Sequence record: PZ386947.1
Strand: one strand, 5' to 3'
DNA length: 64,000 nucleotides
Source of the DNA: a phage
Of this stretch, positions 2,814 to 58,202 are shown piece after piece (the stretch's first letter is position 1; every line of letters starts with the position of its first letter). The notes below the pieces were generated by a model, which had not been told where the DNA came from, ran no database searches, and saw only the letters and a list, made by a program, of their open reading frames with translations. The translations under genes were made by a program, and so were the position numbers.

Positions 2814-3149
2814 TCACTTATAAAGACACGGAATAGCTTTATAGTGACAGGTAACGAATTTTTGTTTAATTTCTTTTGGCTGCTTAAGACCCAGAGCTAC
2901 AAAAGGATGCGGAACATTTCGAATTTGACCAACTGGAAGAGAAGTCAAATCACCAACTTCGCAGAAACCTTCAGGAACATCAGGACCGACAGAGTGAACT
3001 ACACACAGTTCAGGAACTTCACCTTGAACACGTTTACCGATAATAAGTCCTGATTCTGTGACTTCTTCATCACCTGCTTGTGCAGGTTCAGAAACTAAAA
3101 TAACATATTCACCGACAGCACGAATTGGTAGCTGTTGTACTTCAGACAT
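2814..3149 (-). CDS. 31: gp31 co-chaperonin (GroES analogue)
   Basis: 111 aa; sequence [24 protein letters not shown]... recognised as T4 gp31; length matches. Confidence 0.85.
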
Positions 3150-3205
3150 TGTTTTTCCTTTTTGTTAACAGATGAATTAATAATAACAAATAATTCTTAA
3201 AGCAT

Positions 3206-3514
3206 TTATTTACCAATAAATTGGAGTAAATGCTCAACTTTCATACCATTAACAGAAATCAATTTGTCAATAGAAAAACCTCGCCATGCACCAAGTTCAA
3301 CATCAAATACTGGAATCATGTCAGTAGATTCTTTCCAAGTAGATTCAGTCAATTTGCCGGTTTGCATGGTTGGCATAAAGTCCGCATCACGAGTACCTTT
3401 CATAATACGAATAGTACCATCAGACTTTTCAAAAACTACGTTTGAAACACCCATGGACAATTTAGTTTTCAAAATTTCACGAATTGCTACTTTCTGCTCA
3501 GTTGTCAGTTTCAT
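3206..3514 (-). CDS. hypothetical protein (31.x)
   Basis: 102 aa ORF between cd cluster and gene 31. Confidence 0.4.
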   Translation of the reverse strand: MKLTTEQKVAIREILKTKLSMGVSNVVFEKSDGTIRIMKGTRDADFMPTMQTGKLTESTWKESTDMIPVFDVELGAWRGFSIDKLISVNGMKVEHLLQFIGK

Positions 3515-3754
3515 TTATTTACCTATCACAGTTTTAATATGAGTTGTTCCACGTTCTTTAAGGGTGGAAAGTAATTTTTGGCATTTTTCTAAATCAGATT
3601 TCCAACTATATGGTCTATCAATACTAGTCCAATCAGTTTTATAATACTGTTTCCATTTAGAGAAAAAATATTTCTTATACTCTACAGCAAATGAGATGTT
3701 CTCATTAGAATAAGAACTAATTGCTGTGAGCTTTACCAAACGAAATTTCATCAT
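3515..3754 (-). CDS. hypothetical protein (31.x)
   Basis: 79 aa ORF, 4-nt overlap with cd. Confidence 0.35.
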   Translation of the reverse strand: MMKFRLVKLTAISSYSNENISFAVEYKKYFFSKWKQYYKTDWTSIDRPYSWKSDLEKCQKLLSTLKERGTTHIKTVIGK

Positions 3755-4332
3755 TCACCACAGAATTCGTTGATATTTTCCCAGTTTAACTTATTTAAGT
3801 TTTTCTTAGGAACATTAAACACTTCAATACCTGCATTTCGCAGAATATCATCCCAGCCAGGTTTATTTTTATCGTATGTTTCACAATAAACCAGCTTTTT
3901 AATTCCAGATTGAGCTATTGCTTTTGCACAATCTGGGCAAGGAGAAAGTGTTACATACATAGTAGCACCTTCAATAGAAGAACCATTTCGTGCAGCAAAC
4001 AAAATTGCATTTAGCTCAGCATGAATTTCATTTTTAGACGACCATTCAGAGTGAGCGCTGCGGTGTTCTTTCGCCAAGACAAAGCGATCAGTTGAACCAA
4101 ATGATACGCATTCAGGCTTATGGCCTTGGATGATAGTATGTTTAGGTTTATTCAGCAACCAACCTTGCTCAGCGGCATAATCACAACAGTTCACACCTCC
4201 TGCGGGTGAACCATTATACCCAGTAGAAATAATACGTCCATTCTTTTCAATTACTGCTCCTACCTTCCAGGAGCAGCATTTTGATTCTTGTGATACTAAA
4301 TATGCAATTTGAAGTACTGTACTCGCTTTCAT
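3751..4332 (-). CDS. cd: dCMP deaminase
   Basis: 193 aa; zinc-binding deaminase motifs HAELNAI and PCPDCA; length equals T4 Cd. Confidence 0.85.
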   Translation of the reverse strand: MKASTVLQIAYLVSQESKCCSWKVGAVIEKNGRIISTGYNGSPAGGVNCCDYAAEQGWLLNKPKHTIIQGHKPECVSFGSTDRFVLAKEHRSAHSEWSSKNEIHAELNAILFAARNGSSIEGATMYVTLSPCPDCAKAIAQSGIKKLVYCETYDKNKPGWDDILRNAGIEVFNVPKKNLNKLNWENINEFCGE

Positions 4333-4667
4333 TTCATAATCACCAGATAAGCAGATTTAGCAGTTTCAACACGATAAATTTCGTGACGAAGTTTAGTTAT
4401 ACTTTTAATAACAGAACTAATTATATTCTGCCCATCTTTAAAGCGGTTTTTCTTATCAATAAAAATTGCGCCAACCATCTTTTTGTGAAGCTCAACTGGA
4501 TACTTCGTCACAATAATAGCATCATACACAGAAGGATGAATACTATTCACTAGAGTATCATTCATTAAAGTTATTCTAATGAACTGTGCTGTTTCAGAAT
4601 CAAGCGCTCTATGATCGCCAGTATCATTTTCAAGACAATTATCAATTATATCAGTTAAATTCATCAT
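4329..4667 (-). CDS. hypothetical protein (cd.x)
   Basis: 112 aa ORF, overlapping start/stop with neighbours. Confidence 0.4.
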   Translation of the reverse strand: MMNLTDIIDNCLENDTGDHRALDSETAQFIRITLMNDTLVNSIHPSVYDAIIVTKYPVELHKKMVGAIFIDKKNRFKDGQNIISSVIKSITKLRHEIYRVETAKSAYLVIMK

Positions 4668-4900
4668 AGTACGCCATACACCCTTTGTGCTTCAACTAAT
4701 CCATCAAAATCCAGTTTAAGATGCGATATTTGATCGCCATCACCTGGATTCACAATTACTAATACCGAACGAGGAGTTTCGGTAATAACACGAACCGATG
4801 TTTCAGGAAATCGTTCAGAAACCTTATTTACCAATTCCTGTGCAAATAGTTTAACTTTTTCTTGGAATTCTTTAACAGTAATTGGTTTTTCACTTAGCAT
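4664..4900 (-). CDS. hypothetical protein (cd.x)
   Basis: 78 aa ORF. Confidence 0.4.
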   Translation of the reverse strand: MLSEKPITVKEFQEKVKLFAQELVNKVSERFPETSVRVITETPRSVLVIVNPGDGDQISHLKLDFDGLVEAQRVYGVL

Positions 4901-4962
4901 TTTGTTTTCCTCATTTGTTTTGGTAGAGCTATAATATCACAACTCTACCGTAAAGTAAACTG

Positions 4963-5238
4963 TTAAATTGCTTTGAATTCTGATGTCTGTGATTCAAAGC
5001 GAATATCGCCTTTGATGACTAGCTCAGCATCAAGACCAAATACGACAATGATATGCGCAGAACCTGGATACAGCGTAATGGCAATAGAATCCACTTGGTC
5101 TGGAAGCAAAGTGTTCAATACATGAGTCACTTGAGCATGAATTCGAAGCTCGGCTGCGTTATCAAGCTTTTCAAACATATTATTAGCGATAATTTGGCTA
5201 AAAACTACTTCTACGATTTTAGAATAAGTCGGAAACAT
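4963..5238 (-). CDS. hypothetical protein (cd.x)
   Basis: 91 aa ORF. Confidence 0.35.
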   Translation of the reverse strand: MFPTYSKIVEVVFSQIIANNMFEKLDNAAELRIHAQVTHVLNTLLPDQVDSIAITLYPGSAHIIVVFGLDAELVIKGDIRFESQTSEFKAI

Positions 5239-5240
5239 AT

Positions 5241-5433
5241 TTACCTCACATAATTTTCTTCAAGCCAATCAATAACATCCAACGCATTATCAAAAGTTGA
5301 ACCATCTACTTTGTCTTCTGTTTCATAATCAAGAACATCTAAGCCTACTCTTCCATCAACAATAGGCCATAAACAAAATAGATATTTCTTTTCTTTTTCA
5401 ATTTTATCACAAAGTCGATAAATCTTTTCTATG

Positions 5434-5441
<8 letters not shown>
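5241..5441 (-). CDS. hypothetical protein (cd.x)
   Basis: 66 aa ORF. Confidence 0.35.
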
Positions 5442-6856
<1,415 letters not shown>

Positions 6857-6859
6857 TTA

Positions 6860-7090
6860 TTATTTCTCAACCAATGATTGAATATAATCATGTAGGTCTT
6901 TAGATGCTTTACCCCACTTATTTTGGTATTCATTTTTAAGATTAGCACGTGATTGAGCTAATAAAACATCATTAGTTGGAGGTAAAGATTCTAACCGCTG
7001 AATCTGGCGTCCGTAAATCATTGCAGCTATCTCGGATTCATAAATCAATCCTTTGAGATGTTCAAATTGATGCCATGAAATCATTTGCAT
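6860..7090 (-). CDS. hypothetical protein (pseT.x)
   Basis: 76 aa ORF. Confidence 0.35.
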   Translation of the reverse strand: MQMISWHQFEHLKGLIYESEIAAMIYGRQIQRLESLPPTNDVLLAQSRANLKNEYQNKWGKASKDLHDYIQSLVEK

Positions 7091-7380
7091 TTATCCTCTT
7101 TTAACTCTTGACGATAATAACATATCATAGTTTTCTGATCATGTACATATCGTTTTACATCATTGAGCCAAATACGAAATTCCTGGGAATCTTCGAATGG
7201 CATACCGACCCAAGCTTTACCATCAATAACTTTAACTTGCCAAAATAGTTTAGCTTCATCGTATGACTTTATCTGTACAGGCCAATTAGGATGAACTGTT
7301 TCTTTCTTTACTTCTAGAGGCTTTGTCGAACAACCAGCTAGAAGACCGATAGATAATATTACTGCTGATAGTCTAATCAT
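7081..7380 (-). CDS. outer-membrane spanin (Rz1-like lipoprotein)
   Basis: 99 aa; signal peptide with lipobox LLAGC; 4-nt overlap with upstream TM/coiled-coil ORF; corresponds to T4 pseT.2. Confidence 0.65.
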   Translation of the reverse strand: MIRLSAVILSIGLLAGCSTKPLEVKKETVHPNWPVQIKSYDEAKLFWQVKVIDGKAWVGMPFEDSQEFRIWLNDVKRYVHDQKTMICYYRQELKEDKCK

Positions 7381-35873: not shown

Positions 35874-36014
35874 TTACCATACTAGTGAATGTAGTGCCAT
35901 AATAACATCAGAAATGAAAAGCACGACTTGAATTAATCCGAACATTATTCCGTAATATAATGCTATCAATAAAATAGCAAGGGCTAATGAATAGCCCAAG
36001 ATTTTCTTAATCAT
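35874..36014 (-). CDS. small hydrophobic membrane peptide (52.1-like)
   Basis: Hand-translated 46 aa MIKKILGYSLALAILLIALYYGIMFGLIQVVLFISDVIMALHSLVW; ATG overlaps ac stop. Confidence 0.35.
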   Translation of the reverse strand: MIKKILGYSLALAILLIALYYGIMFGLIQVVLFISDVIMALHSLVW

Positions 36015-36165
36015 TAGTAGATAACAACACAAATGTTAAATATGCACACATACCCTGAGCTAAAGCTTGCGAAAACACACTGCTGGCATCAATACAGATA
36101 GTTAAAACACATGCTACTATCCAACAAATAAATGAAATAACTCCTAATAATTTTGCAATATTCAT
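36007..36165 (-). CDS. ac: small membrane protein (ac-like, acridine sensitivity locus)
   Basis: Hand-translated 52 aa MNIAKLLGVISFICWIVACVLTICIDASSVFSQALAQGMCAYLTFVLLSTND; GAGGA Shine-Dalgarno; position between stp and gene 52 as in T4. Confidence 0.5.
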   Translation of the reverse strand: MNIAKLLGVISFICWIVACVLTICIDASSVFSQALAQGMCAYLTFVLLSTND

Positions 36166-42444: not shown

Positions 42445-42474
42445 ATTATACCACATCCTTGTGGTAAAGTAAAC
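42445..42474 (-). promoter_or_regulatory. early sigma70-type promoter for rIIA.1 / rIIA
   Basis: Minus strand GTTTAC (42474-42469), 18-nt spacer, perfect TATAAT (42450-42445). Confidence 0.55.
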
Positions 42475-44294
42475 TATTGGCTCATCCATTCTTTACGAAG
42501 ATCAGCATTATCTCCCATGAGCATTTCAAAAAGCTCTTTCCAGTTCTCAGGAAGTTTAACAACATCATATACTGGGTTTTGAATCATCTCACGATATTCA
42601 GATTTTTCCAAAGAGCCAAGTCCTTTAATATAACGGATGCTATGTTTAGGTAGAGCATCTTTGGCACTCTCATATTCAGCGACTGTATAAAACCATTCTT
42701 GTTTTTTACCGACCTGAGCGATGATTACAGGAGTTTTGACAAAGCGAATTCGTCCTTGCTCAAACAATTCTGGCCAATTACTAAAAAATCCGAGCAGAGA
42801 AGGATAAATGCTTCCTAGACCATCATGGTCAGCATCAGTCATAATAGCAATATTATGATAATTCAAGTTTTCAGCTTTTTCACCGAGAACTAATCCAGTG
42901 ATTGCGCAAATATCAAATAGTTCTTTGTTTTTAAGCATATCGGCATATGACATACCCCAGCTATTAAGAACTTTACCGCGCAATGGATAACCACCATGAA
43001 GTTCTTTATCACGAACATCAATAAGATATCCGATAGCTGAATCACCCTCAGTCAAGAACAATGTAGTGTCAGCATCTTTACCGCAAAGATTCGCTTTAAT
43101 ATGTTTATGAACCTTAGCTTTAGAAGCCTTTTTAGCTGCTTTAGTTTCTGCTGCTTTTTCTGCTGCCAATTTACGGGCCAAGGCAGCTTCAATAATTGGC
43201 ATCAAAATAGCTTCATTATTTAGAATAGCGCGTGAAATCTTTTTAGCATCAAGCTGAATATGACTACGAATTTCGCCAAATGGAGAAGTCAAACGCTCTT
43301 TAGTTTGAGAATCAAATCGCATGTTTTTCATATCACGGACAAACATAACGATAGTCAAACATTCTTTGACACGCGCTTTAGTCACATCAATTTTGAACTT
43401 ACGTTTGATTTGCGGAATAAGGTCTTCACAAATATCATCCATAACACAGTCAATGTGATGGCCACCATTCTTAGTGTGAATGTTATTCACATAAGTTAAT
43501 TGGCGAAATCCATCCGGTGAACGACCAACCGCAATAGAACAATTTTCTTGTTCTTGAACAATAGCATGTTCATCATACTGTCGTGCATATTTCTTAAAAT
43601 TGCCCTGAACCTTTTTACCATTAAAGGTAAATTGAATATCAGGATAAACAACAGCAAGTGTCTGGAGACGATCTAGTGTAATGTCAAGATAAACTTGGGA
43701 CAGCTCATTAGTTTCAAATGACATAAAATCAGGAATGAAAGTAACACGAGTTCCTTTCCATTTTCCAGGAATAGTTTCCCAGGATTTATTTTCCATGCCA
43801 TTTGAACAACGAACTACAATATTATTTTGACCATCGCCAGTTTCACCGACAAACATCACAGAAAAAATGTTAGTTAAACTAGAACCAACACCATTCATAC
43901 CACCGGTGACGCGTTCTTTATCATCACCAAAGTTACCACCTGCTTTTGGAATAGTCCAAGCAGCAACTGGGCCAGGAATTTCTTCACCGGTAGGTGTTTT
44001 AACCATCGCTTGTGGAATACCGCGACCGTTATCTTCAACTGTTACCTGATTATTTTTAATGGTAACATTAATTTTATTTGCGAATTTAAACTTAGTACGA
44101 ATACCTTCATCTACTGAGTTATCGATAATTTCATCAATAAGCTTAACAAGACCAGGTACATACTGAACACTTTCCCATTTACCAAACAGAAAGCGCTCAT
44201 GCATTTCATTAGCTGAAGAGCCAATGTACATGCCGCTACGCTTTTTGATATGTTCAATATCGCTCAGAATTTTAATTTCATTCTTAATCATCAC
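42474..44294 (-). CDS. 39: DNA topoisomerase II large subunit, unsplit (gp39 plus gp60 equivalent)
   Basis: 606 aa continuous GyrB-like ORF (ATPase domain plus TOPRIM); T4 splits this into gene 39 and gene 60, here it is one ORF. Confidence 0.9.
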   Translation of the reverse strand: MMIKNEIKILSDIEHIKKRSGMYIGSSANEMHERFLFGKWESVQYVPGLVKLIDEIIDNSVDEGIRTKFKFANKINVTIKNNQVTVEDNGRGIPQAMVKTPTGEEIPGPVAAWTIPKAGGNFGDDKERVTGGMNGVGSSLTNIFSVMFVGETGDGQNNIVVRCSNGMENKSWETIPGKWKGTRVTFIPDFMSFETNELSQVYLDITLDRLQTLAVVYPDIQFTFNGKKVQGNFKKYARQYDEHAIVQEQENCSIAVGRSPDGFRQLTYVNNIHTKNGGHHIDCVMDDICEDLIPQIKRKFKIDVTKARVKECLTIVMFVRDMKNMRFDSQTKERLTSPFGEIRSHIQLDAKKISRAILNNEAILMPIIEAALARKLAAEKAAETKAAKKASKAKVHKHIKANLCGKDADTTLFLTEGDSAIGYLIDVRDKELHGGYPLRGKVLNSWGMSYADMLKNKELFDICAITGLVLGEKAENLNYHNIAIMTDADHDGLGSIYPSLLGFFSNWPELFEQGRIRFVKTPVIIAQVGKKQEWFYTVAEYESAKDALPKHSIRYIKGLGSLEKSEYREMIQNPVYDVVKLPENWKELFEMLMGDNADLRKEWMSQ

Positions 44295-44360
44295 TTATCC
44301 TCGTTTGGTTTCGGGAATATTATACTCCAGTAATCATAAAGCTAAAGGCCCGAAGGCCTT

Positions 44361-44630
44361 TTATTTAAAACGGATAGTCGAATCCTTGAAGAATAGACCA
44401 GAACATACTGTTCCTTCTACTTTCTGCCCAGTAGGTCCAACAGCACGAAATCCAGTGTGTTGGAAATCATTTTCAGAGCAACCGAACCAGTTATATCCAG
44501 TGATTTCAATATTAGTAAAACCGCTTGAAGATAAAACTTTGGTTGCATTATCAGCATCAGTACATCCTACTAAAGATACTGCTAATACTAATGCTGCAAT
44601 AGAACGATTAATATATTTCATAATTTTCAC
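44361..44630 (-). CDS. small secreted lipoprotein
   Basis: 89 aa; signal peptide with lipobox LVGC (MKIMKYINRSIAALVLAVSLVGC...). Confidence 0.5.
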   Translation of the reverse strand: MKIMKYINRSIAALVLAVSLVGCTDADNATKVLSSSGFTNIEITGYNWFGCSENDFQHTGFRAVGPTGQKVEGTVCSGLFFKDSTIRFK

Positions 44631-44998
44631 TTAAATTTAATGGCTTGAAGAAGACTAATAATTCTCAAGCGACTTCTTTCATCTTTAACTGTAAAAGAAA
44701 GAGGGTCACCAGATTTCATAGTAATAGTACATTCAAAATCAAAATCTTCGGGAACTTCTTCGAATAGGTCAAATTCTTCATCATAAATTAGAACATTACT
44801 CTGAAAACTGTGAAGAATTTTTCCATCATTTCCAGATGCTGTACTAATCATTGTAACATTATTACCTTTCATATCTTCAACGATAAATTCGCTTGTAGAT
44901 ATTACATTACTAATAGAACCATTCCTATAAATAGCAGAAAATAGATATTTCTTTTCTTCACCTTCGCGAATACGATACTTCTTACCGATTTTAAACAT
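44627..44998 (-). CDS. hypothetical protein
   Basis: 123 aa ORF. Confidence 0.4.
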   Translation of the reverse strand: MFKIGKKYRIREGEEKKYLFSAIYRNGSISNVISTSEFIVEDMKGNNVTMISTASGNDGKILHSFQSNVLIYDEEFDLFEEVPEDFDFECTITMKSGDPLSFTVKDERSRLRIISLLQAIKFK

Positions 44999-45000
44999 AA

Positions 45001-45177
45001 TTACCCTTTAAGTAAGTCGTAAAAACCGCCATTCACATGCTTAGGAGCAGAAGGCCGACGAGTAGACAGACGATGACATTTAGGACAAACATCATTTTCT
45101 CGTTCAGAAATCTTTTTAATTTTTTCATATTCATGCCCGCAATCTTCGGATTGGCATTTATAATCATACATTGGCAT
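45001..45177 (-). CDS. small zinc-ribbon protein
   Basis: Hand-translated 58 aa MPMYDYKCQSEDCGHEYEKIKKISERENDVCPKCHRL... with CxxC...CxxC; AAGGA Shine-Dalgarno. Confidence 0.4.
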   Translation of the reverse strand: MPMYDYKCQSEDCGHEYEKIKKISERENDVCPKCHRLSTRRPSAPKHVNGGFYDLLKG

Positions 45178-45179
45178 AA

Positions 45180-45599
45180 TTATTCCTTAAAGTGTGCTTT
45201 CAACATCTGATACAAGGACCATGCCTGTTCATTATTTTCAATAGTAACTTTCATGACCGGGAATTCTGTGAAATCTTCTATTTGTTCTTGCTCTTCCTGC
45301 TTTTGCTCTTCGGACGCTTGATATGGATTTCCAACTTCGTCAAAGAACTCTGCTTCATTCGTGGAGAGCCAGATAAAGTTTTCATCAAGGATATCACCGC
45401 CTGTTGCGTATCCAACCGTGCCAGTAGATGTCACAATTTTAGTAGGACGACTGAGATGGTCAACATCTAAAATTTTAAAAGGTTCCATACCTAAACGTCG
45501 TGCGTAGATTCCGTTATCAGTATGGTCTTTAATAAAAGCTTCTTGAGCTTGTTTATTTTTAAATTGATACCATTTATTAACTTCAAATCTAATAGCCAT
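45180..45599 (-). CDS. hypothetical protein (possibly goF-like)
   Basis: 139 aa ORF at the position of T4 goF; assignment is by position and length only. Confidence 0.35.
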
Positions 45600-46194: not shown

Positions 46195-46686
46195 TTATGC
46201 ATAGAGAGCATTGCTATAGTGTTTAATCCAACTTTCAGGAATGACTTTGTATGTTCCTAAAAATACCACATTGTATAACTTAACGCCATCTTCTACCCAT
46301 TGATCGGTAATATATCCACACATAGCGCGAGTACGCCGAGGAAGTGGTTGTCCACCTTCGATAAATTTAAACTCATAAGGAGCAATGAACTTAATAGCTT
46401 TACCGAGTTTCCACTTAAAGTCTACACCTACATGCGAAGTATCAATCGTTTCAATTCCTTTAGCAGGAACAGCTTTCAAAAACGCAGATTCAAGAAATTT
46501 CGCGCGAACATAACCAAACTGAGGTTTAGACTTTCCATCTTTAGGAATGATACGCACTTTTACTTCAGAATCTTCATCTTTAACACCATGTTTAAGCTGA
46601 ATGCTTACAATTTCAACCAATTTTCCTGCTGCTTTAGAACGGGATTTATCAGATACACGAGCAATTTCACCAATATTAATAATCAT
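46195..46686 (-). CDS. motB: MotB-like DNA-binding protein
   Basis: 163 aa (T4 MotB 162 aa) at the expected position upstream of dexA cluster; early promoter directly upstream. Confidence 0.5.
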   Translation of the reverse strand: MIINIGEIARVSDKSRSKAAGKLVEIVSIQLKHGVKDEDSEVKVRIIPKDGKSKPQFGYVRAKFLESAFLKAVPAKGIETIDTSHVGVDFKWKLGKAIKFIAPYEFKFIEGGQPLPRRTRAMCGYITDQWVEDGVKLYNVVFLGTYKVIPESWIKHYSNALYA

Positions 46687-47868: not shown

Positions 47869-48552
47869 TTATCGTTTTGTTGGAAGAGATAGAGGATCGC
47901 ATTCTTCCTCTGACGGAGCATCTTCAAGACCCATAGCATATCGCAAAGCATACTTCATCATCAGAATGTCTTTCGCACAGTCATGAATAGAATCATGCGC
48001 AACGAATCCATCTAAAGTTCCCTTTGGAAGAGGACATGTGGTCATATCACGAACAAGCAGAAGTGCTTCAATTCTGGTACGAATATCACGCTGATTCCAA
48101 AATTTACATGGTTCTAACTTAAATGTGTCAAGCTCATTCTCAGATACACCATTAAGACGCTGAATATCACGAATGAGATCGACTAAAATTGGAAAATCAA
48201 ATGACATTCCACGACACCAGCCTTGAGATTTCCAAGGATCGATATTATGTGCATTAATGTAATCATTAAATTTTGCAATACCATCGATAGTGCTTACATC
48301 TTCATCTGATGGTGCAATATTTTTTCGAGCTTCAGGAGATTGGTTCTTCCACCATTCAATAGTGCTTTTAGTAAAAAGACGATGTCCTTTTTGGCTTTTT
48401 AAATCAAATTTGATTTTAATGCCGCGTGAAACTAATTCATCAAATGTTTCAACTACTTCTGGGTTAGGGTCAAAAGCAATTACAGCTAAATCAATAACAG
48501 CTGCCTTTTCGCCGCTTCCCATTGTTTCAAAATCTATAATAAAATCAAACAT
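47869..48552 (-). CDS. dexA: exonuclease A (DEDD-type 3-prime to 5-prime exonuclease)
   Basis: 227 aa as in T4 DexA; N-terminal Exo I-like motif IIDFETMG. Confidence 0.8.
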   Translation of the reverse strand: MFDFIIDFETMGSGEKAAVIDLAVIAFDPNPEVVETFDELVSRGIKIKFDLKSQKGHRLFTKSTIEWWKNQSPEARKNIAPSDEDVSTIDGIAKFNDYINAHNIDPWKSQGWCRGMSFDFPILVDLIRDIQRLNGVSENELDTFKLEPCKFWNQRDIRTRIEALLLVRDMTTCPLPKGTLDGFVAHDSIHDCAKDILMMKYALRYAMGLEDAPSEEECDPLSLPTKR

Positions 48553-57282: not shown

Positions 57283-57909
57283 TTAACCTCTATTCATAAA
57301 AGCATTAAAAATTTGGTCATCAATAGAAACATTTACTTTAGACTGTTTTTCTGATGGTAATTCATATCCACATATTACAATTTTGTGATCAATATCAAAA
57401 TACACAGAAGCAATATGATTAATGATGTTTTCAGTAAAGTCTAAATCAACATCAATATCTTTTTGACCACAGCCCAAAGGATAAATAATGCGAGTAATTC
57501 GATTATCTTTAACAAATATTCCACCGACATACTCTGTACTGCGTTTAAAGTCTACACGCCGACGAAATGAAAAATATTCAGGCTCTTTATGAGCTCGGCT
57601 CATAGGACACAACGAGTAACTAGAATAAGAGATGTCAAATCCTACGCCTTCGATATGAGCCAAAGTGTCATGATTAAACCAATTATAATCGTACGCCAAA
57701 TCCATTAGATTATAATATGTAAAAGGCACCGGATTAACATCATTAGTCACAAGCATGTAATTAGCAACTGCTATAATTTCATTGTTTTTAACGAATACAA
57801 ACCGTGATTGATGCGAATGACCTGGACCCGCGTTTTCACGATTAATGATATAACACTGGGCACCTTTATATTTGTATGTATCTTTGCATTTGTGCATTTG
57901 ATAGAGCAT
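57283..57909 (-). CDS. hypothetical protein at the T4 61.2 position (possible AdfA-like anti-DarT factor)
   Basis: 208 aa ORF between 61.1 and sp; identification is positional only and rests on my recollection that T4 61.2 is AdfA. Confidence 0.35.
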   Translation of the reverse strand: MLYQMHKCKDTYKYKGAQCYIINRENAGPGHSHQSRFVFVKNNEIIAVANYMLVTNDVNPVPFTYYNLMDLAYDYNWFNHDTLAHIEGVGFDISYSSYSLCPMSRAHKEPEYFSFRRRVDFKRSTEYVGGIFVKDNRITRIIYPLGCGQKDIDVDLDFTENIINHIASVYFDIDHKIVICGYELPSEKQSKVNVSIDDQIFNAFMNRG

Positions 57910-58202
57910 TATTCACCTACCACTTCAGCGATGATATTTTTGTTATTAAAGTTTTTATCGCAATACAGAACATAATTATACTGCATTACACCACCAGACT
58001 TAAGTTGTTTTTGCACTTCAGCTTTCATTTCAGGACGATCGCGCTCAACGATATTCATAATATCCGCTTCAATTTGAGTTTCAACCTCAGTCTGATCCGC
58101 AGTCATAGACCATTCACACAAATCTTTATCATAACCTGCCATAGCAGGCTGAGCAGCACAAGAAGCTAAAGCAAAAATTGTGGCAAAGATAAATTTTTTC
58201 AT
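57909..58202 (-). CDS. sp: Spackle periplasmic protein (superinfection exclusion / lysozyme inhibitor)
   Basis: 97 aa as in T4 Sp; cleavable signal peptide MKKFIFATIFALASCAAQPAMA. Confidence 0.8.
   Translation of the reverse strand: MKKFIFATIFALASCAAQPAMAGYDKDLCEWSMTADQTEVETQIEADIMNIVERDRPEMKAEVQKQLKSGGVMQYNYVLYCDKNFNNKNIIAEVVGE

Follow-up and report, generated by a model that had tools for sequence, protein, structure and literature searches.

What is the function of the small gene that borders the topoisomerase gene in T-even-type phages, and does its product act at the envelope of the infected cell? The question arises from a 64,000-nucleotide stretch of phage DNA (sequence record PZ386947.1; hereafter the window), in which an initial annotation had described a Cor- or Llp-like lipoprotein that would exclude superinfecting phages by blocking receptors or DNA entry. 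We examined the identity of this gene, the signals and fold of its product, its conservation, and the roles that these features allow.

Identity and genomic position of gene 39.1

Judging from profile matches and gene order, the open reading frame (ORF) is the Tequatrovirus ortholog of T-even gene 39.1, a member of the function-unknown PHROG 902. Residues 3-89 of its 89-aa form match the phrog_902 profile with E=1.8e-37, and the region is 100% identical to Shigella phage CM8 and to Escherichia phages slur02 and slur04. The ortholog is labeled 39.1 in the records of T2, RB32, VR7, T6 and T4T, with the T2 gene 39.1 product showing 97.8% identity across the 89-aa query. No paralog representing a second copy of 39.1 was found in the window.

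The ORF was originally delimited as an 89-aa frame at 44361-44630. Such a frame does exist on the minus strand, starting from an in-frame GTG at 44630 that adds three residues (MKI), but the conserved and annotated start is the ATG at 44621, which yields 86 aa. Homologs are nearly all 81-86 aa long and begin at the equivalent of this ATG (MKY...), and the identical 261-nt CDS, beginning at the equivalent position (MKYINRS...), is annotated in CM8, T6, T2 and T4T. Because the homologs and the identical CM8 annotation start at the ATG, we take the gene as 44361-44621. Use of the GTG would merely extend the cleaved signal peptide, and the mature protein is identical from either start. The possible GTG start overlaps, as GTGA, the stop codon of the upstream ORF, a goF paralog that T6 and CM8 possess, that T2 has in a shortened form (105 aa) and that T4 lacks.

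Between 40 and 48.5 kb, all genes are encoded by the minus strand and follow the classical T-even order (Table 1). The synteny goF-39.2-(ORF)-39.1-39-rIIA.1-rIIA agrees with that of T4, T6, T2 and Klebsiella phage KP179, and 39.1 occupies the position characteristic of the T-even gp39.1 family, between 39.2/goF and topoisomerase gene 39 on the same strand. Because both genes are on the minus strand, 39.1 is located immediately upstream (5') of the topoisomerase gene, and not downstream of it as first described; a 69-nt spacer separates the two, and 39.1 is the final gene of the preceding early unit. The adjoining topoisomerase large subunit is a fusion of 39 and 60 in which neither the mobA/60.1 insertion nor the translational bypass of T4 gene 60 is present. 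An antisense ORF of 136 aa (44224-44634, plus strand) was rejected as an unsupported shadow of gene 39.1.

Table 1. Gene 39.1, its predicted elements and other features of the window
Feature	Position	Strand	Remarks
Gene 39.1 CDS	44361..44621	(-)	86 aa from conserved ATG, stop codon included
Predicted lipoprotein signal peptide	44565..44621	(-)	Residues 1-19 of 86-aa form (MKYINRSIAALVLAVSLVG); lipobox rule and conservation
Predicted lipid-modified Cys codon	44562..44564	(-)	Cys20 of 86-aa form, Cys23 of 89-aa form
Predicted mature periplasmic domain	44364..44561	(-)	Helix, then four antiparallel strands
RNA hairpin	44344..44361	(-)	AAAGGCC-UUCG-GGCCUUU; first base is last base of 39.1 stop codon
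Promoter-like site for gene 39	44319..44344	(-)	MotA-box-like TAGCTTTA (44337-44344), 12-bp spacer, TATAAT (44319-44324)
Topoisomerase gene 39(+60)	42474-44294	(-)	Unsplit, 606 aa; followed by rIIA.1 and rIIA
goF paralog	44627-44998	(-)	123 aa; phrog_622
39.2	45001-45177	(-)	Zinc ribbon
goF	45180-45599	(-)	phrog_622
motB	46195-46686	(-)	cef next in order
dexA	47869-48552	(-)	
o-spanin, Rz1-type	7081-7380	(-)	phrog_812; passes lipobox rule
52-aa hydrophobic protein	36007-36165	(-)	phrog_2501; passes lipobox rule
spackle	57909-58202	(-)	phrog_1586, E=1.4e-46

Two elements in the spacer may separate the transcription of 39.1 from that of gene 39. The first is an RNA hairpin with a 7-bp stem and a UUCG loop in the minimum-free-energy fold. 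It was not listed by an automatic terminator scan, and the 51-nt stretch that bears it folds only marginally better than shuffled sequences (z-score -1.5); a 'terminator' feature is annotated in the same stretch of phage OE5505. The hairpin is likely a terminator or an mRNA-stabilizing element that closes the early transcription unit. The second element is a promoter-like site that a sigma-70 scan did not list and that, when read against the known T4 consensus, resembles a T4-type middle promoter of gene 39. If so, it would mark the boundary between 39.1 and 39 transcription. Time-resolved omics of T4 infection place 39.1 in the class 'early RNA, late protein' (PMC9697503 supplement). The protein is indeed made, since it was detected by proteomics in these infections (PMC9697503 supplement).

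A predicted lipoprotein with a compact mature domain

The N terminus of the 86-aa precursor contains a charged n-region (K2 and R6) and a 12-residue hydrophobic core, followed by a lipobox, L-V-G-C, that is formed by the end of MKYINRSIAALVLAVSLVG and the adjoining Cys (residues 20-23 of the 89-aa form). The predicted lipid-modified Cys is followed by Thr at position +2 and Asp at +3. As a stand-in for SignalP and LipoP, we applied a PROSITE-PS51257-style rule, which was passed by just six loci among the 1188 start-to-stop candidates in the window: gene 39.1, the o-spanin, spackle, a small membrane protein and two antisense ORFs. The rule alone is no proof, because two of these six are antisense noise and because spackle, a signal peptidase I substrate, also passes. 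The signal peptide of spackle holds a lipobox-like L-A-S-C, which cautions against reliance on the specificity of so simple a rule.

The decisive evidence is conservation. In an alignment of 149 diverse sequences, comprising the window protein and 148 homologs, the lipid-modified Cys is aligned in 131 of the homologs (132 of all 149 sequences). Position -1 is G, A or S in 127 of these 131 homologs and position -3 is mostly L, and 130 of the 131 carry K or R upstream of a hydrophobic core whose mean hydropathy is 2.15. Of the 149 aligned sequences, 135 have T or S at position +2. By this measure the lipobox signal is no chance match, and the lipoprotein signal peptide with lipobox LVGC that was originally proposed is upheld. 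We therefore regard the gene 39.1 product as very probably an exported lipoprotein. Its charged n-region, h-region and lipobox with a conserved Cys are the features expected of an Lgt/LspA substrate, and lipidation is predicted. The Thr at +2, interpreted with the Lol-avoidance rule of E. coli, would place the protein in the outer membrane. Some records already annotate family members as 'lipoprotein'.

The other 17 homologs (11%) lack the lipobox Cys, and in all of them another hydrophobic segment, a transmembrane anchor or a signal peptide, stands at the N terminus. This group includes P0148, P0051, P0107, P0156 and 13 others; P0148 carries GFTLVEML, an N-methylation motif like that of type IV pilins (Pfam N_methyl, E=2.2e-6). 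With such non-lipoprotein anchors these members would not be located on the outer membrane, so that anchoring there may be nonessential and the target of the protein may be soluble. They suggest that a periplasmic position at the membrane surface matters more than which membrane provides it.

The mature protein of 64-67 residues is predicted with confidence to form a single helix on a four-stranded sheet (model pLDDT 88.7). In the model, the helix begins at mature residue 4, three residues past the lipid-modified Cys, such that the domain would have almost no tether. Conserved motifs of the family are C-T-D, A..R.L...GY, ITGY..F.C..DD...TGF.A and G.VCSG..FK..TIRF. Y46, D55, T59, S77, K82, T85 and R87 make up a conserved patch. 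Two Cys residues of the mature domain, C51 and C76 (89-aa numbering), are both present in 144 of the 149 sequences and both lost in three. At the positions of S77 and S84, 25 sequences have a second pair of Cys, and no sequence has just one of the two (Fisher p = 6e-29, uncorrected for phylogeny). These covarying pairs indicate disulfides, as expected in an oxidizing compartment, and it is strongly supported by the alignment that at least one predicted disulfide staples the mature domain.

Neither the sequence nor the model leads to a characterized relative. Foldseek searches with the model gave nothing significant against the PDB (best E=1.4), and against BFVD they recovered only members of the family and weaker relatives from jumbo phages, none of which carry a name. 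The arrangement of helix and sheet may resemble those of cystatin, PepSY and VirB8-type (NTF2-like) domains, including the colicin M immunity protein, but the similarity is weak and the small topology is a very common one. The fold neighbors include inhibitor and immunity proteins. Pfam profiles of the cystatin, PepSY and VirB8-like kinds matched none of the 149 members (E<=0.01) and did not match the window protein (E<=0.1). Searches of Pfam, NCBIfam, PADLOC and PDB sequences with the window protein gave signal-peptide noise only, and the 149-member profile found no related entry in the PDB or Pfam. A lambda Bor-like protein was considered and rejected, since no Pfam family of any kind was matched. 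Literature searches under the names gp39.1, Y00C_BPT4 and phrog_902, and on phage lipoproteins in general, yielded no study of its function, and 39.1 is absent from the main text of recent phage functional-genomics papers.

Constraint on the family and errors in the T4 reference

One entry appears to contradict the prediction of a lipoprotein. In the T4 reference NC_000866, ORF 39.1 has 65 aa, no signal peptide and LINS at the position of the lipobox, as might be expected if the locus were a chance ORF or a decaying remnant. Over 141 nt at the 39.2/39.1 junction, however, the T4 reference (NC_000866/AF158101, derived from the 1980s entries M89919 and X06220) deviates at about 11 positions through G/A miscalls and two extra T's (NC_000866 5540-5760 compared with HM137666 345-560). 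All resequenced T4 stocks among the matches listed (T4T, KJ477684-6, MT984581, OL964735 and others) agree with each other and are 90.8-92.3% identical to the reference. In T4T (HM137666), 39.1 is intact, with 86 aa and the lipobox LIGC. In the reference, the differences frameshift not only 39.1 but also 39.2, which is left with 45 aa instead of 58 aa. These differences look like old Sanger errors.

The frameshifted reference accounts for two labels attached to the T4 gene: the UniProt entry 'uncharacterized 7.2 kDa protein' (Y00C_BPT4, quoted via a phage-record note) and the 'singleton' PHROG label of T4 39.1 in a recent screen. It also bears on a CRISPRi-ART knock-down of T4 genes, in which 39.1 was scored 'Not Fit', that is, without effect on fitness (PMC11879866 supplement). 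The guides used (T4 reference 5565-5605; PMC11879866 supplement files 15 and 25) cover the mis-annotated internal start and a spurious base. Because they target a false start and contain a base that resequenced T4 does not have, the 'Not Fit' score is weak and probably uninformative. The T4 reference annotation thus masks the signal peptide of 39.1 and has already misled at least one genome-wide knock-down design. The corrected sequence makes the gene directly testable.

Gene 39.1 is under strong purifying selection. Pairwise dN/dS values among the window phage, T2, T4T and T6 are 0.02-0.09, with 7.5-12 synonymous versus 1-2.5 nonsynonymous differences in the same comparisons. By megablast, 526 phage records contain the full-length gene, and 506 contain the first (5') kilobase of the topoisomerase coding sequence; 39.1 is therefore effectively a core gene of Tequatrovirus. 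An exhaustive profile search recovered 2045 clusters at 50% identity (E<=1e-3), or 862 at E<=1e-10. With such constraint, with the protein detected in T4 infection and with a family of this size, the possibility that the locus is a chance ORF or a remnant is very remote and, in effect, already refuted.

Family members are essentially all single-domain proteins of 80-120 aa; longer members that might have represented domain fusions were rejected as products of mis-called starts. The family was found by tblastn in 1071 phage records, from hosts that include Escherichia, Klebsiella, Enterobacter, Serratia, Aeromonas, Rhizobium, Brevundimonas and Pseudomonas. All contexts that were examined are of phage type, including T4-like and jumbo contigs of 165-235 kb. 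One contig, judged T7-like by eye, has ORFs resembling a primase-helicase and DNA polymerase I, and another carries ERF, Lar and a holin. A profile scan of genome contigs with a narrower alignment gave three matches (L003-L005), of which L003 is phage-like, L004 lies beside an integrase and L005 is the weakest match.

When neighbors were clustered at 80 IMG/VR loci from 37 lineages, no conserved partner gene was found beyond the T4-type synteny, and the most widely shared neighbor family occurs in at most four of the 37 lineages. With no widely shared neighbor family and no domain fusions, 39.1 is a stand-alone gene. Apparent 'second copies' adjacent to some members proved to be an unrelated small basic ORF that had been linked to the family via one read-through ORF. 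In the distant Rhizobium phage RHph_Y2_17_1 (117 kb; region 2974-6228), a 39.1 homolog lies a few genes from rIIA, adjoining a prohibitin-family membrane protein amid nucleotide-metabolism genes. The proximity to rIIA may reflect old synteny or coincidence.

Possible roles at the envelope of the infected cell

The classical receptors of T2, T4 and T6 differ, being FadL/OmpF, OmpC/LPS and Tsx, respectively. By comparison, any two of the 39.1 proteins from the window phage, T2, T4T and T6 are distinguished by only 1-3 of 86 residues, with the window protein one residue away from that of T2 and two away from those of T4T and T6. Because 39.1 is near-identical in phages with different receptors, receptor-matched masking is unlikely. 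This consideration weakens the proposal of receptor-blocking exclusion, and the masking of any one particular phage receptor by 39.1 is not likely.

The proposed model for such a function is Llp of T5, with Cor of T1, phi80 and N15. These are small phage lipoproteins with mature parts of ~60-70 residues that, like 39.1, are made early, and they share with it a predicted location at the periplasmic face of the outer membrane and an intramolecular disulfide (Llp features from PMC9586334). Llp jams the FhuA plug from the periplasm, and its gene, llp, directly follows the receptor-binding gene pb5 (PMC9586334). An equivalent function for 39.1 would have the lipoprotein bind the periplasmic face of a receptor and lock it in a form unable to take the receptor-binding protein, and the format common to the two proteins, small, early, of the outer-membrane lipoprotein type, disulfide-bearing and almost tetherless, is compatible with this mechanism. 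Beyond format, however, the likeness is lost. Aligned by hhalign with T5 Llp (a query 100% identical to T5 llp), the 149-sequence profile matched over 18 columns within the signal peptide only, at a probability of 40%. T5 Llp matches phrog_1119 ('Cor superinfection exclusion protein'), whereas 39.1 matches phrog_902 only. The gene sits among early genes beside the topoisomerase gene and has no link to receptor-binding genes, its product does not vary with receptor specificity, and its family covers phages of very different hosts in 1071 records, compared with 34 records for T5 Llp. We therefore consider an Llp/Cor-type mechanism to be quite improbable. What stands of the initial annotation is a small exported lipoprotein, as indicated by the lipobox and the Cys covariation; membership in the Cor/Llp family does not. 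The gene is already catalogued (gp39.1, phrog_902), and the Cor/Llp analogy fails the sequence-based tests that were run.

Exclusion need not act through a receptor. Spackle is a soluble helical periplasmic protein that is released by signal peptidase I and inhibits the gp5 tail lysozyme. To our knowledge, classical T4 genetics credits exclusion to no genes other than imm and sp. Like 39.1, Spackle (Sp, T4 gene 61.3) and Imm are early T-even envelope proteins, and they guard the infected cell. Gp39.1 could similarly bind a part of the superinfecting virion, for which the tail-tip lysozyme, the tube tip and ejected proteins are candidates, and thereby prevent penetration or the entry of DNA. 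It is early, predicted to be periplasmic and held against the membrane, it has inhibitor and immunity proteins among its fold neighbors, and lipid-anchored and transmembrane-anchored members alike would meet a tail tip that traverses both membranes. It differs from Spackle (phrog_1586) in matching phrog_902 only and in being a lipoprotein with a helix-plus-sheet predicted fold, and the phage already has a spackle gene. Moreover, proteins of phage-versus-phage conflict usually evolve fast, whereas 39.1 is under strong purifying selection, and the family is common to T4-like, jumbo and temperate-type phages and to one contig judged T7-like by eye, whose penetration machineries are unrelated. On balance this alternative appears unlikely, though less so than an Llp-like mechanism.

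Other small outer-membrane lipoproteins encoded by phages are the o-spanins, which are extended and proline-rich. Gene 39.1 differs from these in being early, in lying outside the lysis cassette and in encoding a predicted folded domain. Assignment of 39.1 as the o-spanin of this phage was rejected, because the o-spanin is a separate gene.

It is also conceivable that gp39.1 counters a defense of the host, for example by blinding or blocking an envelope defense or stress sensor such as a membrane-anchored sensor of penetration. A conserved accessory gene that is early, that lacks a conserved partner and that recurs widely in virulent phages with Gram-negative hosts would suit such a role, as would its position near rIIA, a membrane-associated counter-exclusion function, in T-even phages and one Rhizobium phage. 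The protein has no PADLOC match, although the PADLOC library holds defense and not anti-defense proteins. Against this possibility, there is no known precedent for periplasmic anti-defense, and the near-universal presence of 39.1 in Tequatrovirus fits a housekeeping function better than the countering of a patchily distributed defense. The chances of this explanation seem to us as slim as those of Llp/Cor-type exclusion.

The best explanation, in our assessment, is that gp39.1 is an early, lipid-anchored periplasmic binder or inhibitor of a conserved host envelope component, a reading to which we assign a probability of about 0.5. Because the family is strongly conserved among phages that adsorb and penetrate by unrelated machineries, its target is better sought in the host than in the phage. 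We give roughly even odds that this target is a conserved component of the host and neither a specific receptor nor part of a phage.

Under the preferred explanation, the 86-aa precursor would be exported via its type II (lipoprotein) signal peptide, and the mature domain would lie flat on the membrane, facing the periplasm. There it would serve as a stand-alone binding or inhibitor module directed against an envelope component conserved across Gram-negative bacteria, and the envelope of the infected cell would be conditioned or protected from early in infection. The protein might take part in a general, non-receptor-specific exclusion or in resistance to lysis from without. The outcome could be exclusion, resistance to lysis from without or a more stable envelope during lysis inhibition; alternatively, the protein could inhibit a periplasmic enzyme or help the phage to evade an envelope-sensing defense. 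That the net phenotype of 39.1 is the exclusion of superinfecting phages we regard as a tentative possibility, considerably less likely than not.

Few viruses are better studied than T4 and its relatives, and 39.1 is present in essentially every Tequatrovirus genome of the collection. The gene is expressed and constrained, and it represents a family of about 2000 clusters that has so far been seen in phage-type contexts only and that has no Pfam entry or solved structure. Few phage proteins act in the periplasm, and Llp, Cor, Spackle, Imm, RI and the spanins have each revealed a distinct mechanism. Although structurally and genetically nothing extraordinary, 39.1 offers a tractable, highly conserved predicted periplasmic protein in a model phage. 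More speculatively, and with considerable doubt, the gp39.1 family might be a new class of periplasmic host-takeover effector, a minimal lipid-anchored domain employed by thousands of phage lineages (T4-like, jumbo and temperate phages, and a contig judged T7-like by eye), which would bind one universal Gram-negative envelope machine or an envelope-sensing defense. If this were true, gp39.1 would be a general determinant of infection success, and not a receptor-specific exclusion factor.
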